64,000 bases of DNA from an uncultured Gemmatimonadales bacterium (GTDB taxonomy: Bacteria > Gemmatimonadota > Gemmatimonadetes > Gemmatimonadales > GWC2-71-9), in NCBI GenBank assembly GCA_963739455.1, contig CAVUAK010000001.1:1888001-1952000 (forward strand), given 5' to 3'. The notes under the pieces are model-generated. The model was not told the DNA's origin. It was given only the letters and a program-made list of their open reading frames with translations, and ran no database searches. Both the position numbers and the translations under genes were made by a program. Positions 8,383 through 26,205 of the stretch are shown here, piece after piece. The stretch's first letter is position 1, and every line of letters begins with the position of its first letter.

Positions 8383-9124
8383 GACCCAGTTCAAGCGTGG
8401 AGACGCCACCGGTCAGCCGAAGGAAGAGATCCTCGAGGCTCGCGTCGCCTGCGGCAAACTGGTGCCGCAGCTCGGCCATCGTGCCGCACGCGACGATCTT
8501 GCCGCCCTGGATGATCCCGATGCGATCGCACATGTCCTCGGCCACCTCGAGCGTGTGCGTGCTCATGAGGATCGTACCGCCGCGCTGGGTGAATTCCTTG
8601 AAGAGGTCCTTCAGCAGGCGCGCGCTCTTCGGGTCGAGGCCGACCATCGGTTCGTCGACGACGATCACCTCGGGCTGGTGTATCAGCGCGCTCGAGATGA
8701 TCAGCTTCTGCCGCATGCCATGGCTGTACGACTCGGTGAGCTCGTCCTTCCACGGCGCGAGGTCGAAAAGCCTGAGCAGCTCATCCATGCGCCGCTCGAT
8801 GACCGGGCCTTCCTGCCCGTACAGTGCCGCAACGAACCGCAGGAACTCGGCGCCGGTCAGCTTGTCGTACACAAACGGGCGATCGGGGATGAAACCCATC
8901 CGCGTCTTCGCCTTGCGAGGCTTCCGTTCCAGGTCGTCCCCACCGATCTCGACCACGCCGCTCGTCGGCTTGAGGATGCCCGCGATCATCCGGAGCGTCG
9001 TCGTCTTCCCGGCGCCGTTGGGGCCGAGAAAACCGAACAGTTCGCCAGATGGCACCTCGAGATCGATGCCATCGACGGCCGTGAAACTGCCGTACCGCTT
9101 GGTCAGGTTCGTGAGACGTATCAT
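8366..9124 (-). CDS. ABC transporter ATP-binding protein
   Basis: Walker A GPNGAGKTT, signature YSHGMRQK, Walker B IVVDEP, H-loop STH. Confidence 0.95.
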   Translation of the reverse strand: MIRLTNLTKRYGSFTAVDGIDLEVPSGELFGFLGPNGAGKTTTLRMIAGILKPTSGVVEIGGDDLERKPRKAKTRMGFIPDRPFVYDKLTGAEFLRFVAALYGQEGPVIERRMDELLRLFDLAPWKDELTESYSHGMRQKLIISSALIHQPEVIVVDEPMVGLDPKSARLLKDLFKEFTQRGGTILMSTHTLEVAEDMCDRIGIIQGGKIVACGTMAELRHQFAAGDASLEDLFLRLTGGVSTLELGHVLDR

Positions 9125-10635
9125 CGAGTCTTCAGCCGAGTCAGCCGTTCGGGTGCGAGCGACGCAGTGAGCGGCACGAGGTAGAGTGGGTCCGCCGGGG
9201 CGTCGGCGATCAATCTGACGTATCCCGCCCCGGCAGGGAACGTGCCGAAGGTGGGGTCGGCCGGAACCCAGCCTCCCAGCTTCACTTCCGCCCAGGCGTG
9301 GCGGGCCCAGCCGCGCTCCTGTGCCACGATCCCCGCAACAGGTCGCGCCTCCAGGCCCACGCTGCGGGCCAGTGCCACGAACAGGATGGCCCGATCGGAT
9401 ATATCACCCTTCCGGGTCCGGAGTGCACGGCGACTGTTGGGGATCGCCGGATTCGGCGCCGACTTCACTTCCGTCGCCACCCACGCCGCGAGGCGTTCCA
9501 CCCGCCGTCGCTGGTCCGGCTCTCCTGCGATGATCTGCTCCGCCTGAATGCGCACCGCGTGGTCGTTGCCCGGCACCAGCGCCTCGATGGTTCCGGCCGT
9601 GCCGATGCTGCGGCCGGTGGTGGCGGTGTCGAGCGCGGTGAAGAGGGTGTCGGTGGAGAGCCACTGACTGCCGCCGGACAGGTCGGCCCGGGCCCAACCG
9701 GCGGTGTCCTGCTGCACCCGCGCGAGTCGCACAAGCATGGATTGCATGCCGGGTGGCCTCGACGTGAGCATCGCACTGGCAGGACTTTGCGCCTCACCGC
9801 GCGCGCCATTGGCGAACGCCTGACGATAGGCATTCGTGGCGATCTCGAAGGGCTGGCGCTCGGCGACGAGGCCCGGCAGCAGTTCACCCATCACCGGGAG
9901 CCCGTCCTCGTCCACCCAGAGCGTCACCGGAGGACCGTCGCCCTGGCGGCGGATCTGCCAGGCTCGCAGCGTGTCATACCGGTTCGATTCCCAGAGTCCG
10001 GTGGCGGGGTTGATGGCCGCGCTGTCAGGCACCACCAGCGTGGAATCGGAGAGCACCGCAACGTCCACCTGGACCAGCGCGCGACGTAGTGGATCGAGCA
10101 GCTCAAGCTTGCGCAGCATGCCGGTCCTCGGCGACCGGGTTGCCACCACCAGAAGCGGCAGTGAGGAAGGTGGCGCGGCAATGCCCTGTCGCGCTCCAAC
10201 CGTGTCCGCCCGGCCCGCGCGACCTTCGGGGCCCGCCTGCCAGCTGATCGCGGAATCACCCAGCCGAGTCGCGCGGATCTCGGTGCGCTCGCCCGATTGG
10301 CTTCGCGACACCACGACGCCGAGAAGCCCGAGACTGCGATCGAAAGTTGTGCGCGTGCGCTGGACGACGCGAAGGACGGTGTCGGCATCGGGAAGCCGAA
10401 GGTCGATCTGCTCCGTCACGTCGATCGTGGAGAGGGTGGTGTCGAGCGTGAGCGACGCGAAGCCCACGGTGCTCCCGGCAACACTGAGTGTGTAGTAGGC
10501 GGCGGTGGGTGAGATCCTGGCGATGACCGGCACCGCGCGCCGGCTGGCACTTGGGAACCAGGTGCGCTGCGCAAGCCATGCGAGCGACCCGATCCAGGCC
10601 ACGAAGATGATGATCCCGACCGTCCGCCGATTCAG
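9121..10635 (-). CDS. Membrane-anchored transglutaminase-like domain protein
   Basis: C-terminal GDISDRAILFVALAR...HAWAEV...WVPADPT. N-terminal TM. Probable start at CTG 10635 (the track starts at GTG 10602). Confidence 0.8.
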   Translation of the reverse strand: MNRRTVGIIIFVAWIGSLAWLAQRTWFPSASRRAVPVIARISPTAAYYTLSVAGSTVGFASLTLDTTLSTIDVTEQIDLRLPDADTVLRVVQRTRTTFDRSLGLLGVVVSRSQSGERTEIRATRLGDSAISWQAGPEGRAGRADTVGARQGIAAPPSSLPLLVVATRSPRTGMLRKLELLDPLRRALVQVDVAVLSDSTLVVPDSAAINPATGLWESNRYDTLRAWQIRRQGDGPPVTLWVDEDGLPVMGELLPGLVAERQPFEIATNAYRQAFANGARGEAQSPASAMLTSRPPGMQSMLVRLARVQQDTAGWARADLSGGSQWLSTDTLFTALDTATTGRSIGTAGTIEALVPGNDHAVRIQAEQIIAGEPDQRRRVERLAAWVATEVKSAPNPAIPNSRRALRTRKGDISDRAILFVALARSVGLEARPVAGIVAQERGWARHAWAEVKLGGWVPADPTFGTFPAGAGYVRLIADAPADPLYLVPLTASLAPERLTRLKTR

Positions 10636-11135
10636 GAGCGGTACTTCCTGATCGCGGCGTCCACGGTCGTGCGCTCTTCCTCACTGTCGACGACGATGCG
10701 GAGGGTGTGGGGCGCGCCGGTTGCCCCCTCCTTGCCTGGAAAGCTCTCGCCGAGCAGTTCGGCGGCGTCCTCAATGGAGAGTCGCCCGGGCCCCACACCA
10801 ATCAGTGGCGCGGCGATCCGTTCCAGTTGCCAGGCGGCTGCCTGCTGCCACGCGGTGCGGAGCGCCCGGCGTATGACGTCGAGGCCCCCCGATCCGTCAG
10901 CATCCTGGAGAACGAGGTGCACGACCAGGGGCGCGGAGAGATCCCCACCGCCCGTCACCACCACGGCCCCGGCGCCGAGCGGCGACTGCACCTGGCAGAG
11001 CGTAGCAAAGCGAGCCCCGGCCTGGAGGTCGAGGCGCTTCATCGCCGGGGTGAGTGGAGCGAGGGTATCGTCGGCCGGTCGGAGGACGGCATCAGCCTCC
11101 ACGAAGGCGAGGTCGTCGACCACCACCTCGATCAT
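10632..11135 (-). CDS. Macro domain protein (divergent)
   Basis: MIEVVVDDLAFVEADAVLRPA, GAVVVTGGGDLSAPLVVHLV and IAAPLIGVG match the macrodomain fold pattern. Confidence 0.8.
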   Translation of the reverse strand: MIEVVVDDLAFVEADAVLRPADDTLAPLTPAMKRLDLQAGARFATLCQVQSPLGAGAVVVTGGGDLSAPLVVHLVLQDADGSGGLDVIRRALRTAWQQAAAWQLERIAAPLIGVGPGRLSIEDAAELLGESFPGKEGATGAPHTLRIVVDSEEERTTVDAAIRKYRS

Positions 11136-11929
11136 GGCGCGCTGAGTTCCTTGCTGCGCCGGTACATTGGCATCGCTTCGTCCGGACGTCCCATCCGGTC
11201 GAGCACCCGGCCCATCAGGTAGAAGACACGATCGTTCCGGTCATCCAGCTCGGCCGACTTCCGCAGTGCCTCCAGGGCGGCCGGCAGGTTGCCTGCCTGG
11301 TTCCGCGCTTCGCCAACGTAGAGCCAGGTCTCAGCGTCATCGGGGCGCTGTTCCACCCTGCGCATGAGGATCTGGCCGGCTTCGGCGGCGAGTCCCTTTC
11401 GCAGGAGCACCAGCCCCAGTTCCATCAGGGCATCAGGGTTGGATGGACTGGCCTTGAGCACGCGACGCACATCGGTCTCTGCCTCGGCGAGATCCTTACG
11501 CCGCCGGCGGACACCGGCGCGGGCCAGGAGCACTTCGGGGTTGTCCGGATGAAGCTTGAGTGCGGCTGCCAGCGCGTCGAGCGCGCCGGGGACATCCTGC
11601 TGTGACTCGAGCAGTGCAGCGAGGCCGAGGGCGCCGCCGACGTGGGCCGGGTCGAGGGCGAGGAGTTCACGGAACAGGGCGTCCGCTTCTGAGGCGCGGG
11701 CCTGCTCCACCGCCTCGAGGGCGCGCTGGTAGACGCGGGCTGGATCGATCGGTTCGCTGCTGGGCGCCTCGACCCGGGCATCGGGTGTGGCGCTCGCGGC
11801 GAAGGGACGGAGCGGAAAGCTGGCATCGGGCTGGCGCGGAAGCGGGTCCGCTTCGAGGCCTTCCGTGCCGAAGAATTCGTCGATGGCGTGTTCGCGACCA
11901 CTGCTGCGGCTGTGACGGGTCCGGCGCAT
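11132..11929 (-). CDS. Tetratricopeptide repeat protein
   Basis: Several TPR-like 34-aa helical repeats ending in DP/NP turns. Confidence 0.85.
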   Translation of the reverse strand: MRRTRHSRSSGREHAIDEFFGTEGLEADPLPRQPDASFPLRPFAASATPDARVEAPSSEPIDPARVYQRALEAVEQARASEADALFRELLALDPAHVGGALGLAALLESQQDVPGALDALAAALKLHPDNPEVLLARAGVRRRRKDLAEAETDVRRVLKASPSNPDALMELGLVLLRKGLAAEAGQILMRRVEQRPDDAETWLYVGEARNQAGNLPAALEALRKSAELDDRNDRVFYLMGRVLDRMGRPDEAMPMYRRSKELSAP

Positions 11930-12020: not shown

Positions 12021-14874
<2,854 letters not shown>

Positions 14875-17210: not shown

Positions 17211-17426
17211 GTGCAGTACCAGGAGATCCTCGCAGTCCTGTCCTACGCCGGAGACCACGGTCATGCGGTGCGGGTAACGACCGACGGTGCCGCCGAGGTG
17301 GTTGGGGTGCCCACCAGCGTCGACGACCACATCACGGCCCATGAGGTCTATCTCCGGCCTGCCGGGGCCGAGGATACCGAAATCTCAATCTCCCTCAGCG
17401 CCATACGGGCGGTCCAGCTGTTGTAG
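17211..17426 (+). CDS. Small hypothetical protein (71 aa, possible Sm/SH3-like beta fold)
   Basis: GGGGGAG RBS before GTG, coding-like codon usage, fills the gap between the peptidase and the array. Confidence 0.65.
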   Translation: MQYQEILAVLSYAGDHGHAVRVTTDGAAEVVGVPTSVDDHITAHEVYLRPAGAEDTEISISLSAIRAVQLL

Positions 17427-17444: not shown

Positions 17445-17471
17445 TGAAACATTTGAAACATGCCCCACGTA
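17445..17471 (+). promoter_or_regulatory. Candidate ECF-sigma (SigW/SigM-like) promoter for the paralog array
   Basis: TGAAAC-17 nt-CGTA in an AT-richer spacer; second TGAAAC at 17454. Confidence 0.45.
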
Positions 17472-17536
17472 TCGTGGGGGCGGACAGGACAGGTCGACCT
17501 GCCCGCGACCCGGACGCACCAGCTCAAGGCGGAACG

Positions 17537-17794
17537 ATGGAAGGCATTCTCGCCATCATCTTCATTTTCGGCGGCGGCACGATGTTCCTGCTTGCCACCA
17601 GTCCGATAGGCAAGGCCATCGCCGAGCGCATCCGGAATGCCGGACCTGCGGCGGGCGCCGACCCGGAACTGCTTGCGGACGTGGACGCCCTGCGGCACGA
17701 TGTCGCGGAACTGGCGGAGCGCCTGGACTTTGCGGAGCGCCTGCTCGCGTCGAAGCGGGAGAACATCGAGCAGCTTCCCGGGGGACAGGGTTAG
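17537..17794 (+). CDS. PspB-like membrane/coiled-coil protein, array copy 1
   Basis: MEGILAIIFIFGGG TM, SPIGKAIAERI, ELAERLDFAERLL. Confidence 0.85.
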   Translation: MEGILAIIFIFGGGTMFLLATSPIGKAIAERIRNAGPAAGADPELLADVDALRHDVAELAERLDFAERLLASKRENIEQLPGGQG

Positions 17795-17800
17795 GTCGTC

Positions 17801-18085
17801 ATGGAAGACATCGTCAAGTTCGGTCTGGTCGTCGCGATGCTGCTGGCCGTCGGGACGTTTACGCTGTTCATGATCCCGGTTTTCCTCCGGAACTACCGCA
17901 AGGCTGGTATGGTGGGGCGGGAACCCGGCGAGGAGCTCGATGCGCTGCGCGCGGAAGTCGACGACCTGCGGGCCCTGGCTCCCCGCATGGCCGAGCTGGA
18001 GGAGCGCCTCGATTTCGCCGAGCGGATGTTGACGCAGCAGCGCGAGGGCGCGCACCTGACGGGAGGGCCCGATGCCGCCAGGTGA
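17801..18085 (+). CDS. PspB-like membrane/coiled-coil protein, array copy 2
   Basis: N-terminal TM, ELEERLDFAERML. Confidence 0.85.
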   Translation: MEDIVKFGLVVAMLLAVGTFTLFMIPVFLRNYRKAGMVGREPGEELDALRAEVDDLRALAPRMAELEERLDFAERMLTQQREGAHLTGGPDAAR

Positions 18086-18086
18086 C

Positions 18087-18353
18087 ATGGCGCCGGTCTT
18101 CATCACGAGCCTCATTATCGTGGCTGCGGCGGCGGTACTGATCCTCCGCGGACCGCTCGGGAGGGCGCTGGCTCGGCGCCTGGAGGGTACCGCCGGTCGC
18201 GACGAGAGTGCCGCCGCGGGCCTGGCGGATCGTGTGGCCGAGCTCGAGCAGCGAGATAACCGGTTGGTCGAACTGGAAGAGCGCCTGGACTTTGCGGAGC
18301 GATTGCTCGCCCAGCGCGACCTCGATCGCCTGCCGCGTGGGAGGGACCACTGA
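18087..18353 (+). CDS. PspB-like membrane/coiled-coil protein, array copy 3
   Basis: TM, GPLGRALARRLEG, ELEERLDFAERLL. Start 18072 or 18087. Confidence 0.85.
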   Translation: MAPVFITSLIIVAAAAVLILRGPLGRALARRLEGTAGRDESAAAGLADRVAELEQRDNRLVELEERLDFAERLLAQRDLDRLPRGRDH

Positions 18354-18718
18354 TGTTCCAGACACCACTGCCGGCGCCGCCGGCGCCACCCATGCCGGAG
18401 GCGGTAATCGTGTCGGCCGGTGGCGGCGGTCCGACGCTCTTCGAGGCGGTCTCGATTTGCGTCGTCGCGATTTCGTTCGCATTCGTCGCGTACAAGCTGC
18501 TGATGCCGCTCGTCCGCGCCTTTGCGGCCCGGATCGAGGGTCGCGGGACCAACCCGGCGCTGGAGCAGCGGGTGAACGAATTGCAGCAGCAGCTCGCCGA
18601 CGCCGACGTATTGCAGCACCGGGTCGCGGAACTGGAGGAGCGCCTCGACTTTGCCGAGAGGCTGCTCTCCCAGCGTGAGGAACCGTCACGGTTGCCTGCG
18701 GAAGGCGGGCGGCCATGA
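18353..18718 (+). CDS. PspB-like membrane/coiled-coil protein, array copy 4
   Basis: Pro-rich N-terminus, TM, PLVRAFAARIEG, ELEERLDFAERLL; TGATG overlap with copy 3. Confidence 0.85.
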   Translation: MFQTPLPAPPAPPMPEAVIVSAGGGGPTLFEAVSICVVAISFAFVAYKLLMPLVRAFAARIEGRGTNPALEQRVNELQQQLADADVLQHRVAELEERLDFAERLLSQREEPSRLPAEGGRP

Positions 18719-19098
18719 CGCTCTTCCTGCAGGGAACAACGGTGACGGTGCAGGTACCGCCAATTCCGCCAATCCCGCCGATTCCGCCGATCCCTCCCAT
18801 CCCGGAGATTCAGGTGCTGCCGCCGTGGATGATGATGCCGCCCCAGATGATCGCGCTGATCACGATCGCGGCGGTCGCGGGAGTGGCGCTGGTGCTCTAT
18901 CCCATCGCCAAGGCGCTGGCCCGGCGTCTCGAGGGAAGAAACGCGAGCCCGGAGTTGATGCAGCAGATCGACGAATTGCGTGATCGGGTCCACGATCTCG
19001 AGTCGTCGCAGCATCGCGTGGCGGAACTGGAGGAACGGCTCGACTTCACGGAACGGCTCCTGGCGCAGCGGCGCGACCTCGAACTGCCAAGGAACTGA
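18715..19098 (+). CDS. PspB-like membrane/coiled-coil protein, array copy 5
   Basis: PPI-repeat N-terminus, TM, PIAKALARRLEG, ELEERLDFTERLL; ATGA overlap with copy 4. Confidence 0.85.
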   Translation: MTLFLQGTTVTVQVPPIPPIPPIPPIPPIPEIQVLPPWMMMPPQMIALITIAAVAGVALVLYPIAKALARRLEGRNASPELMQQIDELRDRVHDLESSQHRVAELEERLDFTERLLAQRRDLELPRN

Positions 19099-19101
19099 CC
19101 C

Positions 19102-19377
19102 ATGACTGAAGCCGGCGAGTTCGCGTCCATGCTGGCACTCGGTGCCGGGCTCCTGGGTGCCACGCTGGGGCCGATCGGTCAGGCCTGGGGGCGTCGAATC
19201 GAGGCGAAGATTGCGGGTGGCGGACCCCACTCCGAGGAACTGTCGCAGCGCGTTGCCGACCTCGAGGCATGTGCGCAGCGCGTGGCGGAGCTGGAAGAGC
19301 GAGTGGACTTCGCCGAGCGCATGCTGTCCCAGCAACGTGATGCCGAGCAATTGCCGGCGGGAGGGAAGGACACGTGA
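19102..19377 (+). CDS. PspB-like membrane/coiled-coil protein, array copy 6
   Basis: TM, GPIGQAWGRRIEA, ELEERVDFAERML. Confidence 0.85.
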   Translation: MTEAGEFASMLALGAGLLGATLGPIGQAWGRRIEAKIAGGGPHSEELSQRVADLEACAQRVAELEERVDFAERMLSQQRDAEQLPAGGKDT

Positions 19378-19711
19378 GCGGACGGATCGACAACCGGTAC
19401 CTCATCGTGGCCACGATCCTCGGCCTGGCTGCCATCGGCGCCTTACCATGATGGCGATGACAGATGGGCGAGGACTTCGCCGTCCCGGCCTCATCGCCCT
19501 CGGCGTGGTCGGGGCCGTGATCTTCAAGGGACCGGTGGGGAAGGCGCTCGGGCGTCGCCTCGAGCATGGCGCGCCCGCCGAGCCGTCGCCGGAGTTCGTG
19601 GCGGAGCTGGACGAGATGCGGAGCAGGGTGATGGAGCTGGAAGAGCGCCTGGACTTCACCGAGCGCATGCTCAGCAAGGCGCGTGAACCCGAGCGGATTG
19701 ATGTGCGCTGA
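19374..19711 (+). CDS. PspB-like membrane/coiled-coil protein, array copy 7 (frameshift near 19443)
   Basis: GTGA overlap start gives MSGRIDNRYLIVATILGLAAIGA; another frame continues GLIALGVVGAVIFKGPVGKALGRRLE...ELEERLDFTERML. Confidence 0.75.
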
Positions 19712-19746
19712 AAAATCCCGGGGAAACCGTCATTAGATTCATTGCA

Positions 19747-19761
19747 TGGCACGGGTAGTGC
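19747..19761 (+). promoter_or_regulatory. Candidate sigma54 (-24/-12) promoter upstream of the chaperone-pspA pair
   Basis: TGGCACG-GGTA-GTGC versus consensus TGGCACG-N4-TTGC. The predicted start would fall within the RBS, so this is uncertain. Confidence 0.3.
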
Positions 19762-19782
19762 CGGCTACAGGGAGGCTCGGAC

Positions 19783-20179
19783 ATGGTGACGCGCGAGGAC
19801 ATTCAGAATTGGCTGGAGCGGCTCGATGCGGGCACGCTCGAGGTGCGCGAGGTGGAGCCGGGGTTGTGGATCGCCCGTTCGCCCGGACGGCGCCGAGGTC
19901 GTGGTGAACTTCGCGACGCCGGTGGTGATCCTCCGCGTGCGCGTCATGGAACTGCCCAAGGCAGAGCCCGGTCGCAGTGAACTCTTCCGGCAGCTGCTGG
20001 AATTCAATGCACGCGACCTGGTGCACGGCTCGTACGGGCTCGAGGGTGATCACGTGGTGCTGACCGACACGCTCGAGCTGGAAAACCTCGACTACAACGA
20101 GTTCGAAGCCAGCTTCGACTCGATTACGCTGGCGCTCGCCTCGCATTACTCGGCGCTCGCGCCCTACAAGGAGGCCTGA
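19783..20179 (+). CDS. CesT/YbjN-family (type III chaperone-like) protein; frameshift near 19883
   Basis: GGAGG RBS. MVTREDIQNWLERL...PGLWIARS joins PDGAEVVVNF...LFRQLLEFNARDLVHGSYGL...DTLELENLDYNEF once one extra C is removed. Confidence 0.8.
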
Positions 20180-20185
20180 GTCGCA

Positions 20186-20968
20186 ATGGGGATCTGGGAT
20201 CGCTTCTCCACCATGTTCCGGTCGAACCTCAACGACCTGATCAGCCGGGCCGAGAATCCTGAGAAGATGCTGAACCAGCTGATCGTCGACATGAAGACGC
20301 AGCTGGGGAAGGCCAAGCAGCAGGTGGCCTCGGCCATTGCCGACGAGAAGAAGCTCCAGGCCGACGCCGAGGCGCTGCGGAAGCAGGCCGAGGACTGGGA
20401 GCGGCGCGCCATGCTGGCGGTGCAGGAAGGGAAGGACGACCTCGCCAAGCAGGCGCTCATGCGCTACAACGAGGCGCTTCAGGGTGCCCAACAGCTGCAC
20501 GACACCTGGCTCAAGCACCGGGCCGAGACGGAGAAGCTCAAGCTGTCGCTGCGCCAGCTGAACGACAAGATCGAGGAGGCGAAGCGCAAGAAGAACATCC
20601 TGCTCGCTCGAGCCAAGCGCGCCGAGGCGCAGCAGCGCATCCAGGAAACGATGTCGGGCATGTCCGACAAGGGCGCCTTCGAGTCGTTCGAGCGGATGGC
20701 CGAGAAGATCGAGGCGCAGGAACGGAAGGCCATCGCATCCGCCGAGCTGCAGGAGGAGTTCGAGGGCGACTCGCTCATCAAGCAGTTCGAGGTGCTGGAG
20801 TACCACGGCAGCGCCGACCAGGCGCTGCTCGAGCTCAAGCGGAAGATGGGCGTGCTCCCGCCGGCTTCGGGTGAGAAGGCGAAACAGCTTGGTCGCGGCG
20901 CTGGCGACGTACACGATGCAGAGCTGGTGGATGACACCGGCCAGGCGGACGGCACCACGCACGGGTAG
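20186..20968 (+). CDS. pspA: PspA/IM30 (bacterial ESCRT-III) family protein
   Basis: MGIWDRFSTMFRSNLNDLISRAENPEKMLNQLI, WERRAMLAV..GKDDLAKQAL, FERMAEKIE; long coiled coil. Confidence 0.95.
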   Translation: MGIWDRFSTMFRSNLNDLISRAENPEKMLNQLIVDMKTQLGKAKQQVASAIADEKKLQADAEALRKQAEDWERRAMLAVQEGKDDLAKQALMRYNEALQGAQQLHDTWLKHRAETEKLKLSLRQLNDKIEEAKRKKNILLARAKRAEAQQRIQETMSGMSDKGAFESFERMAEKIEAQERKAIASAELQEEFEGDSLIKQFEVLEYHGSADQALLELKRKMGVLPPASGEKAKQLGRGAGDVHDAELVDDTGQADGTTHG

Positions 20969-25661: not shown

Positions 25662-26205
25662 ATGGAATACCGCTGGTACGCCATCCAGACGACTGCGGGC
25701 CATGAGAACAAGGTGCGTAGCCTGATCCAGAAGCGGATCGAGGACGACCCGCGGCCGGCGGAAGAGAAGCTGATCCGCCAGGCACTGGTGCCGACGCAGG
25801 ACGTGATCGAGATCAAGAACGGCAAGAAGGTCACGGTCGAGCGGAAGCTGTTTCCCGGGCTACGTGCTGGTCGACATGCAGATGGGGCAGGAAGCGCTGC
25901 ACGTCGTGAACAGCATCCAGGGCGTGATCAAGTTCGTGGGCTCGGGCAAGCTGCCGCAGCCGCTCCGCCAGGATGAAGTCAACCGCCTGCTGGGCGTGGT
26001 CGAGGCGGTGAGCGACTCGGGCGCGAAGGAAGAGATCCCGTTCCTCATCGGCCAGGTGGTCGAGATCACCGAGGGACCGTTCTCCGACTTCTCCGGCACC
26101 GTCGAAGAGGTGCTGTCCGAGAAGGGGAAGGTGAAGGTGTCGGTGAGCCTGTTCGGCCGGCCGACGAGCGTGGAGATGGACTACCTGCAGTTGAGGGGTC
26201 ACTAG
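25662..26205 (+). CDS. nusG: Transcription factor NusG; frameshift near 25853
   Basis: WYAIQTTAGHENKV...RKLFPG joins YVLVDM...KOW domain GPFSDFSG...LFGRPTSVE. Confidence 0.95.

Follow-up and report, generated by a model that had tools for sequence, protein, structure and literature searches.

A tandem array of small PspB-like membrane proteins in a candidate ECF-driven pspA operon of Gemmatimonadales

The array locus and its gene products

How the bacterial ESCRT-III protein PspA is aimed at damaged membrane is an open question beyond three model systems. The locus considered here lies in a 64,000-nucleotide stretch of the genome of an uncultured Gemmatimonadales bacterium (GenBank assembly GCA_963739455.1; the whole stretch is referred to as the window). 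Seven paralogous open reading frames (ORFs), arranged in tandem and head-to-tail between 17537 and 19711 on the plus strand, are followed by a gene of the CesT_Tir_1 type and then by pspA, a gene belonging to the Psp (phage shock protein) system. Sequence comparisons place this array inside a pspA operon that is probably driven by an extracytoplasmic function (ECF) sigma factor, without PspF or PspC, and on the output rather than the signaling side of the system. Because related bacteria keep the layout of promoter, array, and pspA, the seven genes probably encode a set of PspA membrane partners specific to the lineage. The features of the locus are as follows.

17445..17471, + strand: putative ECF (SigW-type) promoter, TGAAAC-N17-CGTA, 65 nucleotides (nt) before copy 1; activity inferred
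17537..17794, + strand: copy 1, 85 amino acids (aa); near-universal subtype, present in 59/65 arrays
17801..18085, + strand: copy 2, 94 aa; without the basic-helix consensus
18072..18353, + strand: copy 3, 93 aa; predicted model with a helix at 7-26 and a long helix at 28-81
18353..18718, + strand: copy 4, 121 aa; Pro-rich N-terminus
18715..19098, + strand: copy 5, 127 aa; N-terminus with PPI repeats
19102..19377, + strand: copy 6, 91 aa
19374..19711, + strand: copy 7, ~112 aa in relatives; three single-base insertions or deletions (indels) in this assembly
19734..19762, + strand: TAGATT hexamer (19734-19739) and short GGCAC/GTGCC inverted repeat; the repeat resembles a sigma-54 site
19783..20179, + strand: CesT/Tir-like chaperone gene (PF22550), called cesT below; one extra base near 19885 in this assembly
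20186..20968, + strand: pspA (PF04012, bacterial ESCRT-III family), by Pfam match

The ORFs of the array are closely packed, with gaps from copy 1 to copy 7 of +6, -14, -1, -4, +3, and -4 nt, and the other copies are 30-38% identical to copy 1. A hydrophobic helix, with a mean Kyte-Doolittle value of 1.6-2.7 across 19 aa, is present in every copy and is followed in all except copy 2 by a basic helix of the form P-h-x-[KRQ]-A-h-x-x-R. The box EL(E/A)ER(L/V)DF(A/T)ER(L/M)L is found in all seven, and its codons differ synonymously between copies. The seven-paralog array described in the initial annotation is therefore real in each of these respects. Copy 7, however, is not an 87-aa protein with one helix; in 3/3 close relatives aligned it is intact at ~112 aa, with a longer hydrophobic N-terminus. 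Compared with these three relatives, copy 7 in the window carries single-base indels near 19442, 19461, and 19484. The start of cesT is at 19783, and the extra base near 19885 is not present in 5/5 close relatives. Two further genes in the window, which from their translations we take to be uvrA (12021-14874) and nusG (25662-26205), are each split over two frames. Since they are split in the same way as copy 7 and cesT, read errors are likely, and the indels in both array-locus genes are probably read errors of the assembly.

The two genes behind the array are matched well by their family models. The PF22550 gene (88 bits against a cut-off of 27) lies directly upstream of the PF04012 gene (166.5 bits against 33.9), with a spacing of 6 nt, in agreement with the genes first assigned here. 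With the proteobacterial equivalog model TIGR02977, the PspA of the window scores 129 bits, short of the cut-off of 243. Within the operon, a scan for terminators on the plus strand found them no more often than by chance (1 found vs 2.0 expected).

The predicted structure of copy 3 (mean predicted local distance difference test score 90.5, predicted template modeling score 0.49) consists of a membrane helix and then a long helix, and some subtypes have two membrane helices. Lys and Arg are richer after than before the membrane helix in 286/330 copies. A strict RhxxhE motif, which is reported in PMC5940361 to favor parallel trimers, occurs within the last 45 residues of 192/330 copies, as a raw count without a background rate. 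Foldseek gave no match for the copy 3 model at E<=0.001. Fold matches of the same model from VIA-align were generic long helices only (best Z 5.9, root-mean-square deviation 7-10) and were set aside as uninformative. Longer fused forms of the family were also sought; 8000 scored candidates of 234-2000 aa gave three matches, and the two inspected resemble frameshifted read-throughs, which is weak evidence either way.

Distribution of the family and its link to pspA

The arrangement seen in the window is widely conserved. In a first set of loci, made up of the best-match region from 60 of 71 genomes of the same bacterial family, pspA lies directly downstream of an array of 2-13 copies in 58/60 cases; of the remaining two, one is a solo copy and the other meets a contig end. 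The synteny with pspA that the initial annotation proposed to check is thus kept. In a further set of 80 loci, some of them shared with the first set, 67 have pspA, 13 run into a contig end, and 0 have room for pspA but lack it. Reading frames and ORF overlaps are maintained across arrays. Outside the bacterial family, one of 30 loci examined from the pspA side has an array, in a third family of the order. A single weak, divergent copy precedes cesT-pspA in 4/8 loci from other orders (one of them in the unpublished genome G097), and the link between array and pspA therefore looks old.

The role of cesT in this arrangement is less constant. A cesT match is present between array and pspA in 33/58 arrays; no such match is found there in the other 25/58, which still keep the box (the search for cesT covered only that interval). 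CesT had been put forward as a coupled partner of the array, and these counts show that it is not obligate. A stronger proposal would have CesT as the obligate receptor of the shared box, bridging the copies to PspA. Its position between the two in 33/58 loci suits such a bridge, as does the protein-protein contact function ascribed to CesT/Tir domains in section 19 of PMC11237479. The retention of the box in the 25 arrays without cesT at that position, together with a sister bacterial family that keeps cesT-pspA without an array there, makes this quite unlikely.

None of the Pfam or NCBIfam models reaches its cut-off with any of 107 diverse members of the protein family, and no published description of it was found in the literature searched. 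Its profile retrieves 4502 representatives at 50% identity (E<=0.001); the family, large and unnamed, sits inside a pspA operon in a common uncultured group of Gemmatimonadales. In a phylum sample of 151 genomes, matches occur in 71/71 genomes of the same bacterial family (4-20 each), a tally that takes in the unpublished genome G057. The 80 best loci comprise 79 from Gemmatimonadales, Gemmatimonadaceae, Gemmatimonas, or Gemmatimonadota metagenome-assembled genomes, and one from a Chloroflexota bin, on a 1.9-kb contig. The sister bacterial family has a homologous variant with a different box in 25/26 genomes, with 3-11 matches each. Some of its arrays, with as many as six variant copies, have no link to pspA (L254:1213-3120, L260), and some members apparently have two helical repeats.

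The source genome contains 14 members of the protein family, seven in the array and seven as solo copies. Solo members occur in varied settings. One is fused behind a TM2 domain (PF05154, E 6e-20) at L002:5345-5716 (G000 C1 ~2,574,350), with a like fusion in L245; another is found behind a PadR gene (L100:4601-5341); and a more divergent one lies between a bshC-like gene and murJ (L101:3522-6939).

Several lines of evidence indicate that the copies are under selection. Ratios of nonsynonymous to synonymous substitution rates (dN/dS) were 0.08-0.24 in 13/14 ortholog pairs compared with L110 and L111, indicating purifying selection; one pair was excluded as misframed, and copy 7 was compared only over the part after its indels. 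The divergent N-termini noted in the initial annotation prove to define stable subtypes across genomes. For 351/362 copies from 65 arrays the best N-terminal match is in another genome, a count inflated by the five close relatives of the window in this set. Different genera have subtypes and subtype order in common, and within genera the order is largely kept. A quick tree of 93 copies paired all seven window copies with their L110 orthologs and did not group copies by genome, with 46/90 inner branches unresolved. By these comparisons, the array appears as an old, selected, and diversified set with ongoing gain and loss. A neutral or selfish tandem expansion, in which single copies would be functionless, could account for a copy number that ranges from 2 to 13; the dN/dS values, the subtypes and order shared between genera, and the preserved frames and overlaps largely refute it, and we regard it as most improbable.

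A putative ECF promoter and a SigW-like sigma factor

The putative promoter of the window belongs to a recurrent pattern, GA[AC]AC-N16-18-CGT[AC], which was counted within 200 nt of the first copy. It is present ahead of the array in 43/58 cases, compared with a background of 119/7170 windows (1.7%) and with 1/57, 1/28, 0/12, and 0/11 in four control gene sets; in one further array it lies at 214 nt. The motif occurs in only 1/64 gaps between array and cesT or pspA, and directly before cesT in 21/25 cesT-pspA loci that have no array. Taken together, these positions indicate that the array lies between the promoter and cesT-pspA. TGAAAC and CGTA are given in PMC5758882 as the promoter elements of Bacillus subtilis sigma-W. 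A second TGAAAC is found inside the promoter spacer of the window (17445-17459, TGAAACATTTGAAAC), and many array promoters contain a comparable extra element; it may be a second binding site or may tune the choice of sigma factor.

A candidate for the matching sigma factor is encoded in the source genome at C1:379.8-380.4 kb, the best of 19 SigW-like matches. Its best families are the SigW models, under their cut-offs (146 vs 209 and 136 vs 243 bits), and it is predicted to work like SigW without being a member of the SigW equivalog. Orthologs are present in 40/40 genomes searched, among them the genomes whose pspA has no array. The same promoter motif directly follows the sigma gene in 29/30 loci and precedes it in 0/29. 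The gene behind this motif has a weak anti-sigma match (E 1e-5), with a His/Cys zinc motif visible by eye in most cases. At the source-genome locus (L102:5760-9165; G000 C1 379.8-383.2 kb), the motif likewise stands after the sigma gene and ahead of the anti-sigma gene. With the motif placed after the sigma gene, feedback induction would reach only the inhibitor gene and two more genes that lack Pfam matches. A genome-wide scan for the motif gave 72 raw matches. Among 11 downstream proteins scanned were an M48 peptidase, an outer membrane efflux protein, an AcrB-type pump, and a DUF4342 protein, with unrelated genes and four proteins without a family also included; a wider regulon is therefore only suggested.

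The short gap before cesT holds possible signals of its own. A TA[CG][AG]TT hexamer is found before cesT or pspA in 24/38 gaps longer than 40 nt, a raw count without a background rate, and the TAGATT of the window is perhaps the -10 element of an internal housekeeping promoter for basal expression of cesT-pspA. The neighboring sequence that resembles a sigma-54 site was rejected as a conserved promoter, with the pattern in 2/89 regions before cesT or pspA, and reads as a short inverted repeat.

The pspC and pspF genes of the proteobacterial system are missing from the locus, as was first reported. There is no pspC at the locus, and PF04024 was not found in the source genome, which is 84% complete; PspC is present in 11/60 genomes of the same bacterial family, 10 of them over the cut-off. 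The same genome has 13 NtrC-type matches, none of which exceeds the TIGR02974 cut-off for PspF or lies at the locus. These observations bear on the proposal in the initial annotation that the copies are sensors. As signal sensors they would register damage to the membrane and act back on transcription, for instance through the anti-sigma factor or its protease, as PspBC do via PspF. Such a role could explain the diversity of N-termini and helices, and would fit the weak likeness to PspB and the one solo copy behind a PadR gene. It is at odds with a source genome without PspC and without PspF over cut-off, with the scarcity of PspC among related genomes, and with a sigma-anti-sigma pair that is conserved in all 40 genomes searched, even where pspA has no array. 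Because induction appears to run through the SigW-like sigma factor and its anti-sigma, sensing in the signaling sense is unlikely. The locus thus points towards a Psp system that lacks PspF and PspC and is placed under an ECF sigma factor, in a phylum of Gram-negative bacteria.

Relation to known Psp systems and proposed role of the copies

The copies had been described as PspB-like, and this has been borne out as a weak reciprocal likeness, but not as membership of the PspB family or as a box shared with PspB. Over the curated cut-offs for PspB (PF06667/TIGR02976), 0/7 copies and 0/80 genomes gave a match. Below those cut-offs, PF06667 gave a best E of 6e-4 on the 107 members (6/107 at E<0.05), and TIGR02976 a best E of 7e-6 with 27/107 weak matches. 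When the family profile was run over the E. coli K-12 chromosome, pspB ranked first (E 0.049; next 0.50); in the opposite direction, PF06667 ranked a family member first in the source genome (E 0.032), with weak matches also in three control genomes besides E. coli. Weak TIGR02976 matches were found in 42/50 genomes of the array-bearing family, 6/26 of the sister family, and 1/14 controls; 22 of the 30 best loci were members of the protein family, and 35/71 places in the array-bearing family lay inside examined array regions. Segment shuffles reached the PspB score in 2/1000 cases. The nearest named clusters in the Atlas carry PF06667 at 0.78-0.79, which are leads only. Against remote homology, a profile-profile alignment of the family with PspB (hhalign) gave a probability of 60%. 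The PspB relatives available for comparison were enterobacterial near-copies, 82-100% identical among the 120 matches listed. A likeness to the C-terminus of PspC was rejected (hhalign probability 0.7%, 7.6 bits).

In architecture the family resembles PspB of the proteobacterial pspFABC system: by hydropathy, charge, and model, its members are small proteins in which a membrane helix at the N-terminus is joined to a helical part in the cytoplasm, and they are encoded with pspA. They differ from PspB in the invariant F-x-E-R-L-L box and the basic juxtamembrane helix, both missing from PspB in the alignment, which ends before the box. The family thus shares the build of PspB and may be distantly related to it, but the curated tests do not place it among PspB members. 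The operon also differs from pspFABC, with 2-13 copies upstream of pspA, no pspC or pspF, and an ECF rather than a sigma-54 promoter.

Two other types of Psp locus offer parallels. The CesT/Tir-PspA dyad (Ravi et al. 2024, PMC11237479) has the same two-gene core of PF22550 and PF04012. The dyad groups set out in section 19 of that paper add band-7/AAA+/YqiJ, spermidine-synthase, or ATP-grasp genes, and include no array of small membrane coiled-coil paralogs; duplicates of PspB in pspABC operons are already described in its section 17. The string 'Gemmatimon' is absent from the examined main texts and supplements of PMC11237479 and PMC9239133, and the same parts describe no paralog array; the web app, the large tables (Tables S2-S4 of PMC11237479), and the OpARA data could list the context. 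In B. subtilis pspA-ydjGHI and in LiaI-LiaH, as described in PMC8581546, PMC5758882, and PMC7619361, pspA stands behind a TGAAAC/CGTA-type promoter together with membrane anchor proteins. According to these sources, pspA-ydjGHI is under sigma-W and the membrane foci of PspA depend on YdjG/H (PMC8581546), and LiaI recruits LiaH (PMC7619361). In the array, unlike these systems, the anchors would be a single expanded paralog family, in a Gram-negative host. None of the copies matches the SPFH, TPM, or LiaI families, and by Pfam none of the nine operon genes matches SPFH (YdjI) or YdjG/H. The CesT-PspA dyad and duplicated pspB are known, as are systems of this general kind; for the unnamed family of PspB-like membrane partners and its expansion within an apparently ECF-driven Psp/ESCRT-III operon, no description was found in the literature searched.

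We lean slightly towards the copies being oligomeric membrane anchors and effectors for PspA, with binding inferred. The order of promoter, array, cesT, and pspA would then form an envelope-stress operon. Stress would remove a membrane anti-sigma factor, and the freed sigma factor would induce all nine genes. Each copy would insert into the inner membrane with its C-terminus inside, following the positive-inside rule, and its basic amphipathic helix would lie on the inner leaflet. Through heptads of the RhxxhE type, the copies could zip into short parallel coiled coils, probably trimers, as homo- or hetero-oligomers, and the invariant F-x-E-R-L-L box would be a shared contact surface presented to PspA. 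As anchors and co-effectors they would bring PspA to damaged membrane, the role filled elsewhere by PspBC, LiaI, or YdjGH, and would carry no signal to transcription. Stable subtypes with different N-termini and membrane helices might let the set deal with more kinds of lesion or membrane complex. A bolder and rather doubtful extension is that the subtypes form combinatorial hetero-trimers, a modular layer of ESCRT-III adaptors in which each would see its own lesion, lipid state, or stalled complex and all would nucleate PspA polymers through the box. If true, the expansion of one small family to thousands of sequence clusters would have given bacteria an equivalent of the varied adaptors that act upstream of ESCRT-III in eukaryotes. 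Candidates for both the sigma factor and the promoter are at hand, together with one invariant box, and all genes of the locus are short.

A number of observations weigh against a role as anchors for PspA. The sister-family variant is homologous (hhalign probability 97%, E 4e-11) and occurs as solos or small clusters away from pspA; 0/21 pspA loci of that family have a family copy in the 1.5 kb upstream, and only 8/30 variant loci have the promoter motif. The protein family is therefore order-wide, and its tight link to pspA is not universal. In the source genome, the seven solo copies stand beside unrelated genes, and none has the motif within 300 nt. The promoter evidence is also incomplete in the arrays themselves, with ten arrays after uvrA in which the motif lies only inside the uvrA coding sequence (and was not counted) and four with no motif within 450 nt. 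The genomes are related, and the locus counts are accordingly not independent. The likeness to PspB, which appears weak but reciprocal, is in part generic: heptad-preserving shuffles reached the PspB score in 25/1000 cases, GspM of type II secretion systems matches 19/107 members compared with 27/107 for PspB, and the C-terminal bundle of KcsA scores 20.1 bits, above the 16.6 bits of E. coli PspB. Finally, Yersinia PspBC are reported in PMC3467454 to protect membranes and prevent secretin toxicity without PspA. The unlinked variant, the solos (one of them fused to TM2), and the Yersinia precedent would all suit copies that act independently of PspA, self-oligomerizing to plug, shield, or chaperone damaged membrane or misassembled complexes and sharing the promoter through one stress regulon. 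This alternative is possible, although somewhat unlikely, given that the array stays between promoter and pspA in 58/60 loci despite loss of cesT and changed flanking genes, and that single copies precede cesT-pspA in other orders.

Genes around the array were also noted. A 71-aa ORF at 17211-17426 of the window, outside the promoter, has no Pfam match and lies upstream of the array in many relatives. A 1.6-kb stretch upstream of many arrays was considered as a regulator and rejected, with ORFs that resemble serine dehydratase subunits; from their translations we presume them to be the two subunits of that enzyme. This serine-dehydratase-like gene pair precedes the array or cesT-pspA in many relatives (L005-L054), and is not at this place in the window. 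Further upstream, on the minus strand of the window (9121-11929), genes for a TPR protein, a Macro-domain protein, and a transglutaminase-like protein stand in a row.

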